A stretch of 64,000 nucleotides of DNA from Acidimicrobiia bacterium (GCA_965215185.1 OZ244034.1:704001-768000), one strand, 5' to 3'. Positions 38,278-50,900 are shown, counted from the stretch's first letter. Made by a program: numbers and translations. The notes: generated from the letters alone by a model not told the origin.

Positions 38278-41200
38278 ATGAAGAAAATCATGGCCGCCAA
38301 CCGGGGCGAGATAGCCATCCGGATCATGAGGGCCGCGACCGAACTCGGCCTGCGCACCGCCACCATCTACCCGAGCGAGGATCGTTTCAGCCTCCACCGC
38401 TTCAAAGCGGATGAGGCCTACGAGATCGGCAGCGACAAAGGGCCGGTAGCAGCCTATTTGGACATCGACGCCATCGTCGCCTTAGCCAAGGAGCGGGAGG
38501 TTGACGCCATCCATCCCGGATACGGGTTCCTATCCGAAAACAGCAGGTTCTCAAGAGCGTGTGCGCAGGCAGGTATCACCTTCATCGGCCCGCCGCCTGA
38601 GTTGCTCGAGTCTCTGGGTGACAAGACCGCTGCTCGGAGCCTTGCCAAGCGGGCGGGGGTGCCCACCGTCCCCGGAACCGGTCTTGCGCCGGCTGATCCC
38701 CGGGAGATTCTCCTCAGTGCCGAGTCGGTGGGTTATCCGTTGATCGTCAAGGCCTCCTTCGGCGGCGGCGGCCGTGGCATGCGGGTGGTCAACCATCCCG
38801 ATGAGCTGTTGGGAAGGCTGGAGGAGGCGAGCGGGGAGGCTCAGCGCAGCTTCGGAGATGGTTCGGTCTTTCTCGAACGCTACATTTCCCGAGCGCGGCA
38901 CATCGAAGTGCAGATTCTGGCCGACTCCCACGGTTCGGTGGTGCATCTCTGGGAACGTGATTGCTCGGTCCAGCGGCGCCATCAAAAGGTGGTGGAATTG
39001 GCGCCGGCGCCAAACCTACCCGACCAACTCCGCGACAAGATTTGTGCGGCGGCTATCCGGGTGGCCCAGACAACCGGTTACGTGAACGCCGGCACTGTCG
39101 AGTTCCTAGTGGATGCCGATACCGGCGAGTGGTTCTTCATCGAGGTGAACCCGCGCATCCAGGTGGAGCACACCGTGACGGAGTTGGTCACCGGTGTCGA
39201 CCTAGTCCGGTCCCAGATTTTGGTGGCGCAGGGATGCCGGCTCCACGAGGCGCCGCTCTCCATTCCGCTTCAGAGCGAGATCCCCCGCCGGGGGACCGCC
39301 ATACAGTGCCGCATAACCACCGAGGATCCCAAAAACGAGTTCTCGCCGGACTACGGGCGCCTGCAGACCTACCGTAGCCCCGGTGGGCTGGGTATCCGGC
39401 TCGACGGAACTGCTTATGCCGGAGCGGTGCTCAGCCCGTTTTACGACTCGCTTCTTGTCAAACTCACCGCGTCGGACACAAACCTTCCTGACGCCTGCAC
39501 GCGAGCCGATCGAGCTTTGCAAGAGTTCCGGATCCGGGGGGTTGAGACCAACATTCAGTTTCTGCGCAATGTGATCAACCATCCCGATTTCCGCAATGGC
39601 GTTGTAACGACTCATTTCCTGGACGAGACCCCCGAACTCTTCGATATCCGGCCACCCCGCGATCGCGCCAACAGGCTGCTCAGCTATATCGGCGACACGA
39701 TCCTCAACGGGAATCCCACCGTGGCCGGAAAGGAACACCCGAAGAAACTAAAGGCTCCTCCCGTGGTGCCGGTAGACATGAGCGCCAAGCCACCTCCCGG
39801 GACCCGCGATCTGTTGCTGGAACTGGGACCGGACAGGTTTGCCGAGTGGGTCTGGGAGCAAGAGCGGCTTCTGGTGACCGACACCACCTTCCGTGACGCC
39901 CACCAGTCGCTCTTGGCAACCCGGGTGCGCACATACGACTTGTTGGGTACCGCCGGGGCAGTGGCAAGACGCCTCCCGAACCTGTTCAGCGTCGAGATGT
40001 GGGGAGGCGCCACGTTCGATGCGGCGCTCAGGTTCCTGTACGAGGATCCATGGGAGCGTCTCCGTCTGATGCGGGAGGCGATTCCCAACATCTGCTTCCA
40101 GATGCTGCTGCGAGCCTCAAACGCGGTCGGGTACACCAGTTACCCCGACAATGTGGTGCGAGAGTTCACCATCGAGGCCGCCCGGCAGGGTATCGACGTC
40201 TTCCGGGTCTTTGACTCTCTGAACGACGTGCGAAACATGGAGGTGGCCATTGAAGCAGTGCGCAGTACTCATGCCATTTGTGAGGCCGCCATCTGTTACA
40301 CCGGCGATCTTCTTGATCCGGGGAGACCCAAGTACAGCCTGACCTACTACATGGATCTGGCCCGGCAACTCAAGGCGATGGGAGCGCACATACTCTGCAT
40401 CAAGGACATGGCTGGGCTGTGCCGTCCGTATGCGGCCGATCAATTGGTGAGGGTGCTACGGGAGGAACTGGGCATGCCGATCCATTTCCATACGCACGAC
40501 GCCAGCGGGGTGCAGGCGGCCACCCTCCTAAAGGGATGCGAAGCCGGGATCGATATCATCGACGCGGCTGTGGCCGCGGTTTCGGGCTCCACCAGCCAAC
40601 CAAACCTAAACACGATTGTCGGCTCGCTTAGAGGTACCGAGCGGGATACTGAGCTCGACTCGCAGGCTTTAGGCGACTGCTCGCTGTATTGGGAAACGGT
40701 CCGCACCTACTATCAGCCCTTCGACAACTCGCCCAAGTCGGGGAGCGCCCGGCTCTACGACCACGAAATCCCGGGTGGACAGTTCACCAACCTCCAACAG
40801 CAGGCGACGGCCTTGGGTCTTGGGCAACGCTGGCGAGAGGTTGAGGAGATGTATGCGGATGTCAACCAGATGCTGGGTGACATCGTCAAAGTCACACCGT
40901 CCAGCAAGGTGGTGGGTGATCTGGCTCTGTTCCTGCTCTCCAAGGGGATGACGTGTGATGAGGTTCGACGGCTTCCCCCCGACCACAACATCGGGTTCCC
41001 CGAGTCGGTGGTCGACATGATGCGGGGGTCCCTCGGTGAACCTCCCGGCGGGTGGCCGGAGGACATCCGGCAAATACTGCTGTGCCGCAACGAACCGATC
41101 GAGGGGCGGGCAGGCGGGAACCTGCCTAGCGCCGATATCGACGCCTCCGTCGAGACTGCGACGGCGTTGCTCGGGCGGGAAGGGGAGTGGGCCGACGGCC

Positions 41201-41718
41201 TCAGCTACCTGCTCTATCCTGCGGAGTTCACCAAATTTGCCGAGACCCGCCGGAAATTCGCCGATGTTGGCTTGCTTCCCACCCCGGTTTTCTTTTACGG
41301 GCTGGAAGAAGGTGAGGAGTGCGTATTCGACATCGAGCCGGGGAAACGCCTTATTGTGCAGTATCACACCGTGGGCGAACCACAGCCCGACGGAACCCGC
41401 ACGATCTTCTTCGATCTCAATGGAGCGCCCCGGGAGATACGGGTTCGCGACCGGTCCCTCCAATCGGAGAGACCCGCCGCTCGTAAGGCTGATAGCGGTA
41501 ATCCGCAGCACGTCGGCGCTCCGACCCCGGGTGTGGTGACCGGTCTGTTCGTAGCTGTTGGGGACGAGGTGACGGCCACCAGCAAATTGCTGACACTGGA
41601 GGCGATGAAGATGCAGAGCACCATTTACGCTCCGGACTCGGGTCGGGTCAAGGAACTACTGGTTCAAGCGGGAAGCCAGGTCGAGGCCAAGGATCTGCTG
41701 GTGGTGGTGGAATCGTGA
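38278..41718 (+). CDS. pyc: Pyruvate carboxylase
   Basis: ANRGEIAIR biotin carboxylase domain, DTTFRDAHQSLLATR carboxyltransferase domain, EAMKM biotinyl site. Confidence 0.97.
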   Translation: MKKIMAANRGEIAIRIMRAATELGLRTATIYPSEDRFSLHRFKADEAYEIGSDKGPVAAYLDIDAIVALAKEREVDAIHPGYGFLSENSRFSRACAQAGITFIGPPPELLESLGDKTAARSLAKRAGVPTVPGTGLAPADPREILLSAESVGYPLIVKASFGGGGRGMRVVNHPDELLGRLEEASGEAQRSFGDGSVFLERYISRARHIEVQILADSHGSVVHLWERDCSVQRRHQKVVELAPAPNLPDQLRDKICAAAIRVAQTTGYVNAGTVEFLVDADTGEWFFIEVNPRIQVEHTVTELVTGVDLVRSQILVAQGCRLHEAPLSIPLQSEIPRRGTAIQCRITTEDPKNEFSPDYGRLQTYRSPGGLGIRLDGTAYAGAVLSPFYDSLLVKLTASDTNLPDACTRADRALQEFRIRGVETNIQFLRNVINHPDFRNGVVTTHFLDETPELFDIRPPRDRANRLLSYIGDTILNGNPTVAGKEHPKKLKAPPVVPVDMSAKPPPGTRDLLLELGPDRFAEWVWEQERLLVTDTTFRDAHQSLLATRVRTYDLLGTAGAVARRLPNLFSVEMWGGATFDAALRFLYEDPWERLRLMREAIPNICFQMLLRASNAVGYTSYPDNVVREFTIEAARQGIDVFRVFDSLNDVRNMEVAIEAVRSTHAICEAAICYTGDLLDPGRPKYSLTYYMDLARQLKAMGAHILCIKDMAGLCRPYAADQLVRVLREELGMPIHFHTHDASGVQAATLLKGCEAGIDIIDAAVAAVSGSTSQPNLNTIVGSLRGTERDTELDSQALGDCSLYWETVRTYYQPFDNSPKSGSARLYDHEIPGGQFTNLQQQATALGLGQRWREVEEMYADVNQMLGDIVKVTPSSKVVGDLALFLLSKGMTCDEVRRLPPDHNIGFPESVVDMMRGSLGEPPGGWPEDIRQILLCRNEPIEGRAGGNLPSADIDASVETATALLGREGEWADGLSYLLYPAEFTKFAETRRKFADVGLLPTPVFFYGLEEGEECVFDIEPGKRLIVQYHTVGEPQPDGTRTIFFDLNGAPREIRVRDRSLQSERPAARKADSGNPQHVGAPTPGVVTGLFVAVGDEVTATSKLLTLEAMKMQSTIYAPDSGRVKELLVQAGSQVEAKDLLVVVES

Positions 41719-46700: not shown

Positions 46701-47164
46701 GGAGATCAGCCGCCACCCCGCGGAAGATCGATCCCGATCCGGTGTTTCGCAATGTCCTGGTCAGCCAGGTCATCAACAAGGTGTTGTGGAAGGGAAAAAA
46801 GGATCTTGCCCGCCGGATCGTCTATTCGGCTTTGGAGCGGGTGGAACTGCGCACCCGCCAAGATCCGGTAAGCGTGCTGAAAAGGGCCATCGACAACCTC
46901 AAGCCTCAGATGGAGGTGCGGTCCCGACGAGTGGGAGGATCTTCCTACCAGGTGCCCGTGGATGTGCGTCCTGACCGGGCCAGTTGCCTGGCCATCCGGT
47001 GGTTGGTCGGTTACGCTCGCCGTCGGCGAGAGCCCACCATGGCGTTGCGGTTGGCCGGGGAGATACTCGATGCGGCTAATAACACCGGGTCTGCGTTCAA
47101 AAGACGCGAAGACATACACAAGATGGCGGAGTCCAACAAGGCTTTCGCCCACTACCGCTGGTAG
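46697..47164 (+). CDS. rpsG: 30S ribosomal protein S7
   Basis: [28 protein letters not shown]. Confidence 0.98.
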
Positions 47165-47174
47165 AGGTTTTGTT

Positions 47175-49289
47175 GTGGCTGCTGACCGGGAAAATCGTCT
47201 CCTGCGCATGCGCCAGGTGCCTCTGAGCCGCACCCGCAACATCGGCATCATGGCACATATCGACGCCGGCAAGACGACGCTCACTGAACGGATTCTCTAC
47301 TACACCGGTCGAAACTACAAGATCGGCGAGGTGCACGAGGGCGCCGCCACCATGGACTGGATGGCCCAGGAGCAGGAGCGGGGGATCACCATCACTTCGG
47401 CCGCCACCACCTGCATCTGGCACGACCACAGCATCAACATCATCGACACTCCCGGGCACGTTGACTTTACGGTCGAGGTGGAGCGAAGCCTGCGGGTATT
47501 GGACGGCGCGGTGGCGGTATTCGACGGAGTGGCGGGAGTTGAGCCGCAGTCAGAGACGGTTTGGCGCCAAGCCGACCGCTACCAGGTTCCCCGCATTTGC
47601 TTCATCAACAAGCTTGATCGGGTGGGGGCCGACTTCTTCGCGGATGTAGAGTCCATTCGCACCCGCCTGCAGGCCAAACCTCTGGTTCTTCAGCTTCCTG
47701 TGGGAGAGGAGAGCGGTTTTCGGGGAGTTGTCGATCTGGTGGAAATGCAGCTTCACGAGTGGCGGGGAGATGACGGCAAGCAGTGGGACACCGGGGAGAT
47801 TCCCGAGTCGATGCTGGACCTCGCCTACGAATACCGGGCACGGATGCTGGAACAAGTGGCTGAAGTGGATGAGAAGCTCCTTATCAAGTTCCTCGAAGAT
47901 TTGTACATCACCCCCGAGGAGATACGTGCGGCGATTCGGGTGGGTGTCTTGCAGCACATGTTTGTGCCGGTGCTATGCGGCGCGGCTTTCAAGAACAAAG
48001 GGGTCCAGCTGCTGCTGGACGCCATTGTCCATTACCTGCCCAGCCCGTTGGATCTTCCTGCGGTGCAAGGCTTCGCTCCCAAGAATCCCGAAGAGATCTT
48101 GGATCGCAAACCCCAGGACGACGAGCCCTTCTCGGCTTTGGCGTTCAAAATCATGACTGACCCCCATGTGGGCAAGCTCACCTACTTTCGGGTCTATTCG
48201 GGGTCGGCCTCCAAGGGCGGAGCGGTGCTCAACACCTCCAGCGGTAAAAAGGAGCGTTTGGGCCGGTTGCTTCGCATGCATGCCAACCGCCGCGAGGACA
48301 TCAATGACGTGTACGCGGGTGACATTGTGGCCGCGGTGGGACTGCACAGCACAACCACCGGAGACACGCTCTCCTCTATCCACGATCCCATCAGCCTGGA
48401 GTCCATGGCCTTTCCCGCTCCGGTGATCTGGGTAGCTATCGAGCCCCGCACTCGGGTCGACCAGGATAGGTTGTCCTCATCGCTTCAAAAGCTCTCCGAA
48501 GAGGATCCCACCTTCCTGGTGCGAAGCGATGAGGAGACCGGTCAGACCATCATCGCCGGAATGGGGGAGTTGCATTTGGAAGTGTTGGTGGATCGACTGG
48601 TCCGGGAGTTCAAAGTCGCCGCCAACATCGGTAAGCCGCAGGTCGCCTATCGGGAGACCATTGAATCGGAGTCGGGGAAGGTCGAAGGCCGCTACGTGCG
48701 ACAGAGTGGCGGCCGCGGTCAATACGGTCATGTGGTCATCGCCCTCGAGCCCACCGGCCCAGGAGGGGGTTACGAGTTCGTCAACAAGATCAGGGGGGGC
48801 CGTGTCCCTCGCGAATACATTCCGGCCGTGGCCGCCGGTATCGAGGAGGCTCTGGACGGCGGCTTCTTGGCCGGCTATCCGGTGGTGGATTTGAGGGTCA
48901 CCCTCCTTGACGGTTCGTATCACGATGTAGATTCTTCCGAGTTGGCCTTTCGGATAGCCGGGTCCATGGCAGTGCGCTCTGCCGCTAAGCAGGCGGGAAT
49001 GAAGCTGCTGGAACCGGTGATGGAAGTGGAAGTGGTCGCTCCCGAGGATTACATGGGAGATGTGATCGCTGATATTTCCTCGCGCCGAGGCCGAATCGAA
49101 GAAACCGATCAGCGGGGAACGTCTCGGATTATCACCGCAGCCGTGCCGCTGGGCGACATGTTCGGCTTTGCCACTGATATCCGTTCTCGGACACAGGGGC
49201 GAGCAACGTATACGATGCAGTTCAAGGCTTACCAAGATGTTCCAGCATCAATTTGTGAAGAGTTGCTTCACATGCGAACAGGTAAGTAA
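47175..49289 (+). CDS. fusA: Elongation factor G (start GTG 47175 or ATG 47208)
   Basis: [49 protein letters not shown]. Confidence 0.98.
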
Positions 49290-49298
49290 TACAGAAAA

Positions 49299-50519
49299 GG
49301 GGGTGTTTGGTTGTGGGTAAGGTGAGGTTTGAGCGGGTGAAGCCGCATTTGAATGTGGGGACTATGGGTCATATTGATCATGGGAAGACGACGTTGACGG
49401 CTGCGATTACGCGGGTGTTGTCTGAGCGGGTTGGTGGGAGGAATGTGTTTACTGGGTTTGATGATATTGATCGTGCTCCTGAGGAGCGTGAGCGTGGTAT
49501 TACGATTCAGATTGCGCATGTTGAGTATGAGACTGTGTTGCGTCATTATGCGCATGTGGATATGCCGGGGCATGCGGATTATATTAAGAATATGATTACG
49601 GGGGCGGCTCAGGTGGATGGGGCGGTGTTGGTGGTTTCGGCTGTGGATGGTCCGATGCCGCAGACGCGTGAGCATGTGTTGTTGGCGCGGCAGGTGGGTG
49701 TGCCGCGGATTGTGGTGTTTTTGAATAAGTGTGATTTGGTGGATGATGAGGAGTTGTTGGATTTGGTGGAGTTGGAGGTTCGGGATTTGTTGACGGAGTA
49801 TGAGTTTCCGGGTGATGATGTTCCGGTGGTGAGGGGTTCTGCTTTGCGGGCGTTGGAGGGTGATGTTGTGGCTGGTGATGGTGTGATGGAGTTGATGGGT
49901 GTGGTGGATGAGTATGTGGATATTCCGGTTCGGGATATGGAGCGTCCGTTTTTGATGCCGATTGAGGATGTGTTTTCGATTACTGGTCGGGGGACGGTGG
50001 TGACTGGTCGTGTGGAGCAGGGGGTGTTGAAGGTTGGTTCGGCTGTTGAGGTGGTGGGGTTGCGTGAGACGCGTGGTTCGGTGGCGACTGGTGTTGAGAT
50101 GTTTAGGAAGTTGTTGGATGAGGGTCGGGCTGGTGATAATGTGGGTGTGTTGTTGCGGGGGGTGGGTAAGAGTGAGGTGGAGCGTGGTCAGGTGTTGGCT
50201 GCTCCGGGTTCGATTTTGCCGCATGTGGGGTTTGAGGCGCAGGTGTATGTGTTGACTAAGGAGGAGGGGGGGCGGCATAATCCGTTTTTTTCGGGTTATC
50301 GTCCTCAGTTTTATTTTCGTACGACTGATGTGACGGGTTCGGTGGTGTTGCCGGGTGGTGTGCAGATGGTGATGCCGGGTGATAATGTGGAGTTGTCGGT
50401 GGAGTTGATTGCTCCGATTGCGATGACGGTGGGGTTGGATTTCGCGATTCGTGAGGGTGGTCGGACTGTGGGGGCGGGTCGGGTCACCAAAATCACCAAA
50501 TAACCCCCAAACCAAAAAC
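49299..50519. other. Strand-skewed tract: G/T-biased 49299-50484, A/C-biased 50485-50519
   Basis: Direct reading: all but one wobble position G/T up to 50482; 50485-50519 has no G and only 2 T. Confidence 0.95.
49313..50503 (+). CDS. tuf: Elongation factor Tu (396 aa) with extreme G/T codon bias
   Basis: [43 protein letters not shown]; intact frame; AAGGGGG RBS before GTG 49313. Confidence 0.98.
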
Positions 50520-50588
50520 TTTGTAAGAAGCAGACTTAGAAAACTAAAGACCAGAAAACCGGATAAGCGAGGACAGTAGAAGAGACCA

Positions 50589-50900
50589 ATGAACGGTTCC
50601 CAGAAGATCCGCATAAAGCTAAAGGCTTATGACCACCAGAGTGTGGATGAGTCGGCGCGCAAGATCGCTGCTACGGTCACTCGTACTCAGGCCAAGATCA
50701 AAGGTCCTATACCTTTGCCCACCGAGATTCATAGATACTGTGTTATTCGCGGACCCCACGTTGACAAAGACTCCCGGGAACATTTCGAGATGCGCATCCA
50801 CAAACGTCTGATTGATATTCTTGATCCGACCGCGAAAACGGTGGATTCATTAATGCGTCTTGACCTGCCTTCCGGGGTGGAAGTGGAGATAAAGCTGTGA
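50589..50900 (+). CDS. rpsJ: 30S ribosomal protein S10
   Basis: [31 protein letters not shown]. Confidence 0.98.

Follow-up and report, generated by a model that had tools for sequence, protein, structure and literature searches.

We analysed a window of 64,000 nucleotides, the whole stretch of DNA presented here, from an Acidimicrobiia bacterium (GCA_965215185.1 OZ244034.1:704001-768000), together with the genome to which it belongs (hereafter G000; one contig of 3.12 Mb, 60.7% GC). We found that tuf, the gene of EF-Tu, is written in this window almost entirely in codons ending in G or T, and that G000 holds a second tuf identical to the first. The bias is a real and extreme feature, it extends across several families of the Acidimicrobiia, and it is seen only where tuf copies convert each other and NucS is present. 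Since the bias needs both converting copies and NucS, and since its substitutions run along the keto/amino axis (G and T versus A and C), the best reading is a strand-asymmetric, keto-biased gene conversion between tuf copies that is filtered by NucS. We assign this reading a probability of about 0.6. Such filtered conversion would be a new variant of biased gene conversion.

Codon usage of two identical tuf copies

A model that read the sequence of this window alone had claimed that 389 of the 390 tuf codons counted from GTG 49313 end in G or T, and that every Leu codon is TTG. Our recount agrees with this original prediction on both points. The third positions comprise 229 G and 160 T, the sole exception is TTC at 50441, the two-fold pyrimidine codons are T-ending throughout save for this single TTC, and 32 of 32 Leu codons are TTG. 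At the genome mean of GT3 (the fraction of codons ending in G or T; 0.499), the chance of finding at least 389 such codons in 390 is 7e-116. The genome-wide survey of GT3 that the prediction had proposed places both tuf copies at the top of 13,143 stop-to-stop frames of at least 100 codons (0.975-0.982) and again at the top of 2,527 crude gene calls (mean 0.499, standard deviation 0.074), where tuf scores 0.982 and the runner-up, a 104-codon transposase fragment, 0.827. With tuf as the lone outlier among some 2,500 genes, the prediction was right to describe a locus-restricted, strand-specific bias that overrides codon preference, and the objection it had raised against itself, that many single-copy genes might be equally biased, does not hold. 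Codon positions 1 and 2 are shifted as well, with G/T fractions of 0.65 and 0.55 (0.65-0.67 and 0.54-0.57 across the genus) versus about 0.50 and 0.455 in normal tuf genes, and the GC content of tuf is 0.54 versus 0.607 for the genome.

The flanking genes, of which the prediction had named fusA, rplC and rplB, are ordinary, both fusA and rpsJ (Table 1) and the other ribosomal protein genes (GT3 0.46-0.63), and so is a large open reading frame at 38278-41718 of the window (1,146 codons, no identity assigned; GT3 0.503). The tuf reading frame and its GTPase motifs proved intact. EF-Tu retains three Pfam domains (GTP_EFTU at 6e-61, D2 and D3), a motif search returned GHIDHGKT and NKCD, and DMPGH (checked as a variant of the DxxG box), RGITI and SAL are present too. 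These domains and motifs, together with the fusA-tuf-rpsJ context, identify the gene as tuf.

The second tuf, which the original prediction did not detect, lies at genome 789294-790481, 36 kb from the window copy. The identical block spans from about 25 bases before the tuf start to 13 after the stop, and the flanks of the two copies are unrelated. The window copy has fusA upstream and rpsJ downstream. The other stands behind tRNA-Tyr, tRNA-Thr and tRNA-Met and is followed by rpmG, which was recognised by a motif match in relatives and in G000 by reading of the sequence only. Both copies lie on the leading strand, co-directional for replication and transcription, as judged from the GC skew of G000 (origin near 2.53 Mb, terminus near 1.10 Mb). 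Within each of 27 NucS-positive genomes the copies differ by 0-22 bases while their proteins are 73-96% identical to the query, and the conversion tract in relatives comprises the coding sequence plus 0-36 flanking bases. This pattern of concerted evolution indicates that the two copies are kept identical by gene conversion.

Among the closest known counterparts is the tufA/tufB pair of Salmonella and E. coli, which shares with the present case a fusA copy and a tRNA copy, coding identity between unrelated flanks, and homogenisation within each genome while orthologues diverge. In the Salmonella model, tuf conversion stays within the limits of the gene, and mismatch repair influences its course (PMC5485169). 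The abstract describing that model mentions no compositional drive, whereas here one strand has been pushed to G/T until no synonymous alternatives are left, and the repair enzyme in the present case is NucS rather than MutS/MutL.

We consider it scarcely credible that the bias is an artefact or an import, that is, a collapsed repeat, a polishing error or a tuf taken from a donor with genome-wide G/T wobble bias. Assembly trouble at this locus does occur, because the two-copy repeat is absent from many fragmented assemblies, including those of 4 of 16 congeners (G009, G013, G014 and G016). However, all 12 of 12 congeners in which tuf was found have GT3 values of 0.965-0.992 in both genomic contexts, with 93-96% protein identity. 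The stretch is present in ten studies, and contigs from two further studies agree with its sequence, so that independent sequence supports the consensus. All runs consisted of contigs, and parts that they leave uncovered carry no meaning. Variants among co-occurring strains are mostly G<->T exchanges (32 of 48 variant places in run X4, 30 of 47 in run X10). Metatranscriptome contigs over 49297-50509 indicate presence in an RNA library only. As for a foreign origin, G000 holds no gene set of comparable bias, and the conserved fusA-tuf-rpsJ and tRNA-tuf contexts led us to reject horizontal acquisition.

On a wider scale, tuf was not found in 52 of 161 genomes of the class, mostly assemblies of many contigs. 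Some assemblies carry pieces of the gene, which in G191 and G106 are located at contig ends. The probable reason is that short-read assembly breaks at two identical blocks, and tuf drops out of many such assemblies.

Dependence on converting copies and NucS, and the direction of change

For about 100 genomes, from the class and from neighbouring groups, we recorded the number and mutual identity of the tuf copies, their tRNA linkage, the presence of NucS, and GT3; the rows from three unpublished genomes (G027, G038, G227) add nothing essential. Where NucS was present and the aligned copies differed by 0-22 bases, tuf was biased in 27 of 27 genomes (GT3 0.63-0.99), and NucS was detected in every one of them. 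Another 18 NucS-positive genomes, with two copies of equal score that were not aligned, had values of 0.67-0.94. Both copies were normal (0.40-0.51) in all six NucS-positive genomes, from three families, whose copies have diverged by 128-187 bases. One of the six is G078, which shares its genus with the biased G057 and whose tRNA-linked copy is likewise normal. Single-copy tuf genes from assemblies of at most 10 contigs were likewise all normal (0.38-0.51), five of five with NucS and five of five without. Finally, in the family of G048, where NucS exceeded the cut-off in none of 26 genomes, converting copies with 0-14 differing bases were normal in six of six cases (0.39-0.44), and so were diverged copies in three of three (0.42-0.47). 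Altogether, the shift does not extend beyond the converting tract and is not seen in copies that no longer convert; nucS is present in the biased genomes, and the bias is absent in the one NucS-less family with converting copies.

These comparisons bear on transcription-associated mutation, in which very heavy transcription would lead to deamination of the non-template strand, above all in the copy under the strong tRNA promoter, with conversion spreading the changes. Both copies are indeed co-directional with replication and transcription, and of the 62 differences within NucS-positive pairs that change base class, 44 have the keto base in the tRNA-linked copy, compared with 15 of 30 where NucS is absent. 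An initial count of 27 of 30 had suggested that the tRNA-linked copy always leads; with eight more pairs this became the 44 of 62 just given, a tendency only, which hints at an unequal role of the copies as recipients. Nevertheless, tRNA-linked copies that do not convert are normal in six of six cases (GT3 0.41-0.51), as are tRNA-linked converting copies without NucS (in five of the six converting pairs of the NucS-less family, tRNA-Met lies 39-53 bases upstream of one copy). Moreover, two transcribed regions, the tRNA-tuf spacer and the 3' untranslated region, are rich in A and in A/C, respectively, GT3 is 0.40-0.66 in at least eight other genes that immediately follow tRNA genes, EF-G in the same operon has 0.52, and transversions are left unexplained. 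We therefore regard this mechanism as very improbable. On the same grounds, normal tRNA-adjacent genes and normal non-converting tRNA-linked tuf genes, we rejected co-transcription with tRNA as a sufficient cause in any form (mutation, Rho or RNase). In other phyla, tRNA-linked tuf genes have GT3 values of 0.49-0.71, with no consistent effect.

The direction of change was determined by comparing the consensus of 17 normal relatives with that of 19 sequences with GT3 above 0.96, a set formed by the loci of the genus and one named record that is 94% identical (L037). In normal high-GC relatives, the third positions of tuf comprise about 150 G, 220 C, 25 T and 2 A; A-ending codons being nearly absent there, the real change is the loss of C at position 3. 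Changes from A/C to G/T outnumber the reverse by 43 to 2 at codon position 1, by 24 to 2 at position 2 and by 132 to 1 at position 3, that is, by 67 to 4 at positions 1 and 2 combined with transversions included. At position 3 we counted 87 C>T and 45 C>G changes, so that a third of the lost C went to G. Positions 1 and 2 contribute transversions of their own (10 A>T and 5 C>G), and over all positions 50 C>G and 10 A>T stand against a single reverse transversion. The changes thus run along the keto/amino axis and not along the transition axis. At least 26 consensus amino acids are changed in the EF-Tu of the genus (K>R, I>V, T>V and E>V, among others). Because codon positions 1 and 2 and the amino acids have shifted too, the push acts on DNA or RNA as a whole and is no effect of wobble decoding.

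This spectrum is at odds with the original prediction, which had seen in C>T plus A>G the signature of deamination in single-stranded DNA. The main change is the loss of C at position 3, with 45 C>G next to 87 C>T; at positions 1 and 2, A>T and C>G are as one-directional as the transitions; and single-copy tuf genes and non-converting paralogues are unaffected, even behind the same tRNA genes. The changes are neither limited to transitions, nor spread over the whole transcription unit, nor independent of a paralogue. Asymmetries from single-strand deamination, such as those of the non-transcribed strand and of the mitochondrial heavy strand, are transition-only and depend on exposure time. They resemble the present case in that one strand becomes G/T-rich; they differ in that the transversions of tuf point the same way as its transitions and no bias is seen where a converting partner or NucS is lacking.

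In another variant, the first candidate of the original prediction, deamination accompanies recombination. Exposed single strands would lose amino groups (C to U, A to hypoxanthine) and drift to T and G. Such a process is strand-specific, it requires ongoing recombination, as seen here, and exposure of opposite strands beside a break could yield a G/T-rich body and an A/C-rich tail. However, the one-directional transversions (10 A>T and 50 C>G versus 1 reverse) do not fit, and converting copies in the NucS-less family are unbiased in six of six cases. Missing repair, if it had any effect, would be expected to strengthen a deamination signal, so that these unbiased pairs count against this variant, which we judge unlikely. 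A targeted deaminase, another of the candidates first proposed, is not needed (none was searched for).

Selection on the message or on its decoding was also weighed. A C-poor, G/U-rich message might escape Rho loading or a C-specific RNase (actinobacterial RNase E prefers C), or G/T-ending codons might be those read best. In favour of this, Rho is present in G000 (about genome 2139639), and the 3' end and spacer after both copies are C/A-rich and G-poor, resembling a Rho loading site, with the reverse composition in the body of the gene. Phe, Ile and Asn codons are the most resistant in partly converted lineages, which suggests that translational selection opposes the push; translation pushing back in this way was counted in favour of a role for decoding. 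On the other hand, ribosomal protein genes and EF-G lie at the genome mean, the open reading frame at 38278-41718 is normal, and the tRNA set of G000 is standard (49 genes, one gene per anticodon for nearly all, with a single tRNA-Leu(CAA) gene decoding TTG). The amino acids change too, and A is removed as strongly as C. T-ending four-fold codons are enriched before C (19/36 versus 59/173), the reverse of an avoidance of Rho-binding YC dinucleotides, and the tail of the congener G004 contains no YC dinucleotide. Non-converting, single-copy and NucS-less tuf genes are normal. We therefore rejected YC avoidance, in view of the T enrichment before C, and translational selection, in view of the other highly expressed genes and the tRNA set. 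Selection of this general kind appears quite improbable.

A proposed NucS filter on gene conversion

A full-length nucS, with N and C domains, lies at genome 349634-350293 of G000 (L135:1207-1866), and MutS domain V has no match anywhere in that genome. This answers the call of the original prediction for an inventory of nucS and mutS. No MutS was found in G048 either; the MutS searches covered one biased genome, G000, and five non-biased genomes. According to an in vivo study in Mycobacterium smegmatis, in which mismatches were created with oligonucleotides, NucS corrects G-G, G-T and T-T more than 500-fold and all others escape (10.1101/2023.11.26.568737). The recognised mismatches are exactly those formed by two keto bases, which matches the class boundary of the changes in tuf.

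We infer that NucS acts on hybrid DNA formed between the tuf copies. In each conversion, two complementary strands, one from either copy, would pair, and the differences between the copies would become mismatches. NucS/EndoMS, the sole mismatch repair found in G000, would act on G-T, G-G and T-T, and A-C, A-A, C-C and mixed mismatches would pass. If it is assumed that hybrids form mostly between the recipient's coding strand and the donor's template strand, G/T in the recipient opposite an A/C allele in the donor would give a keto-keto mismatch that is recognised, and the change would be undone or aborted. A recipient A/C facing a donor G/T allele would instead give an amino-amino mismatch that escapes and could be fixed in one daughter at the next replication. 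This polarity could plausibly stem from the leading-strand location of the two copies, with gaps arising on the lagging-strand template. Repeated rounds would then act like selection for G/T on the coding strand, so that synonymous sites would saturate and CTG would become TTG, and the drive would also push tolerated amino-acid changes (K>R, I>V, T>V, E>V). The model predicts that C>T, A>G, C>G and A>T are favoured and that G<->T and A<->C are neutral, as observed.

One candidate of the original prediction, a biased handling of heteroduplex in an organism with NucS and without MutS/MutL, comes near to what the comparative data favour. Its repair logic, in which G:T pairs are tolerated, has to be reversed, as NucS recognises G:T and lets A:C pass.

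The proposal has points of contact with several known systems. For NucS/EndoMS repair these are the full-length enzyme in G000, the match between its known spectrum and the class boundary in tuf, and an implication in gene conversion in Haloferax, which NucS deletion severely impairs (PMC11276520). A 2026 preprint on M. tuberculosis paralogues raises the general idea that composition could be altered by asymmetric repair during recombination; it reports a T>C excess and suggests that NucS acts less in recombination (PMC13061034). The difference is that NucS is known as a repair of replication errors, and that the T>C signature of that preprint, as given there, is not the one found here.

GC-biased gene conversion (gBGC) is likewise a non-adaptive drive of mismatch handling in hybrid DNA that resembles selection and can fix slightly harmful changes. 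Here, in contrast, the axis is keto/amino rather than strong/weak, and the drive is strand-asymmetric, which gBGC is not. The composition of tuf does not follow gBGC, since T at position 3 rises from about 25 to 160, C at position 3 falls to 1 and the GC content of the gene lies below that of the genome. Repeat-induced point mutation (RIP) in fungi turns C into T on both strands and destroys genes. It resembles the present case in acting only on duplicated sequence, and differs in that the tuf change affects one strand class and leaves frame, domains and motifs intact. No report of a keto-biased, saturating drive, or of NucS-driven composition on paralogues, was found in the literature, supplements not being covered.

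Several observations weigh against NucS-filtered conversion. The sign of the bias cannot be derived without assuming both the strand polarity and the strand that NucS restores. The contrast between presence and absence of NucS comes from one family, probably from one loss event, and this family may differ otherwise. In the genus of G030, GT3 reaches only 0.53-0.81 despite conversion between the copies (7 differing codons); 2 of 6 assemblies there, of 72-93% completeness, yielded NucS, so that its status is ambiguous, and we discarded an absence of NucS in G030 as unreliable because two congeners have it. G126 and G165 show GT3 values of 0.90 and 0.84 with one tuf each by DNA search (160 and 30 contigs). 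In G195 the copies have diverged (133 differences), yet the tRNA-linked copy has 0.66 and the other 0.52. The genomes are related, and the counts therefore overstate independent support. The transposases of G000 are skewed in the direction opposite to tuf, with a sign that follows gene orientation and not the replichore. Moreover, an A/C-only tail and an A-rich stretch at bases -24 to -15 before tuf lie inside the identical block, and a simple model with one polarity predicts neither. Three other genomes (G085, G191 and G106) were first counted as single-copy; truncated second copies were then found, at contig ends in the latter two.

If NucS-filtered conversion is correct, a repair enzyme of narrow specificity, working by way of gene conversion, has prevailed over codon preference in many lineages and altered no fewer than 26 consensus amino acids of EF-Tu, which ranks among the most conserved and abundant proteins of bacteria. 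This would be a clean natural example of a prokaryotic non-adaptive drive on a new, strand-specific keto/amino axis with a named candidate enzyme, and would make the mechanism of bacterial biased gene conversion directly testable. In practical terms, tuf and EF-Tu are standard phylogenetic markers and codon-adaptation references, and in these lineages they would mislead both uses; composition-based tools would flag tuf as foreign DNA. It is conceivable, if rather doubtful, that every recombination between non-identical sequences in NucS-bearing Actinobacteria, perhaps also in Archaea, is a strand-asymmetric keto/amino drive of which tuf is the clearest reporter. In that event, the drive would shape insertion sequences, rRNA spacers and repeats, feed chromosome-wide strand skews and could rewrite conserved proteins against selection, and the A/C- or G/T-rich islands in the repeats of G000 would be further footprints.

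Edges of the tuf bias and other skewed sequences

The features of the tuf locus are collected in Table 1.

Table 1. Features at the tuf locus, in window coordinates.
Feature	Position	Strand	Remarks
fusA (EF-G)	46962..49289	+	GT3 0.524, ordinary; Pfam GTP_EFTU, EFG_III, EFG_IV, EFG_C
Antisense open frame, 448 codons	49268..50614	-	No Pfam family; by-product of composition
Identical block, gene-conversion tract, 1,229 bases	49288..50516	+	100% identity with genome 789269-790497; self-BLAST, flank alignment
Shared 5' leader	49288..49312	+	Ribosome-binding G run; kept before both copies in all genus members
tuf codons 1-390	49313..50482	+	389 G/T-ending, all Leu TTG; Pfam EF-Tu domains
Last six tuf codons and stop	50483..50503	+	GTC ACC AAA ATC ACC AAA, all A/C-ending; stop at 50501; exempt across genus
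First 13 bases after stop	50504..50516	+	A and C only; inside identical block
Remaining tuf-rpsJ spacer	50517..50588	+	Part of A/C-rich spacer
rpsJ (ribosomal protein S10)	50589..50900	+	GT3 0.602; Pfam Ribosomal_S10

At the 5' edge, the last 14 bases of the leader (49299-49312) consist of G and T only, and the A-rich bases lie before them, within the identical block. At the 3' edge, the identical block still covers the exempt codons and a further 13-33 bases, and across the genus this part contains hardly anything but A and C; in G004 the shared tail, of nearly pure A/C, extends about 33 bases beyond the stop. A/C-rich spacers follow both copies throughout the genus. The whole 85-base spacer of the window (50504-50588) has an A+C content of 0.69 and ranks fifth of 441 co-directional spacers (mean 0.51, standard deviation 0.07). 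In partly converted lineages, the level of conversion, once corrected for baseline, stays even from codon 1 to codon 320 and falls off only within the last 40-75 codons; a smooth gradient from 5' to 3', apparent in the raw counts, vanished after correction for baseline codon use and was abandoned. Two or more A-ending codons occur among the last 12 in 28 of 101 biased tuf genes versus 4 of 67 normal ones, rows that are not independent. One speculation is that breaks occur preferentially at a site near the 3' end and that the hybrids to either side of it have opposite polarity, which would give the A/C mirror.

The long frame antisense to tuf was rejected as a gene. It matches no family and follows from composition, because codons opposite G/T-ending codons start with C or A and cannot be stops.

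Skewed sequences also occur elsewhere in G000. Transposase genes of the IS110 family and of DDE types are largely A/C-ending, with GT3 values of 0.12-0.30 measured on the coding strand of each gene; this skew, a mirror image of that in tuf, is most pronounced in the 3' part of the genes. They include L148:1-1263 (genome 1096026-1097288, minus strand), L149, L150 and L153, and further cases at genome 371338-372767, 1612708-1613211 and 2396511-2397083. Among mobile elements lie fused histidine-kinase/response-regulator genes, at L152:587-1855 (genome about 939386-940654, minus strand) and at genome 1608308-1610737, whose C-terminal ends, OmpR-type by eye and not by Pfam, use almost only A/C-ending codons (GT3 0.28 for the 809-codon copy). 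Overall, G000 contains some 85 islands of 300-1,350 bases with a G+T content of at least 0.68 or at most 0.32. Extreme windows (skew of at least 0.18) make up 5.1% of dispersed repeats versus 0.40% of unique sequence and are 12-16 times commoner in repeats. A tandem array of GGTTGTGG-like units at genome 605162-605600 holds about 350 bases of nearly pure G/T, and its other strand reads as a Thr/Pro-rich sequence of low complexity. Large duplications, involving genome 1-6352, 2993335-3008465 and 898521-908799 (6.4 kb at 98.9% and 10.3 kb at 96.7%), show no overall keto skew (G+T 0.50-0.51), and a segment of transposase fragments at 501-1450 is A/C-rich. Judged by its size, the 6.4-kb duplication may hold an rRNA operon.

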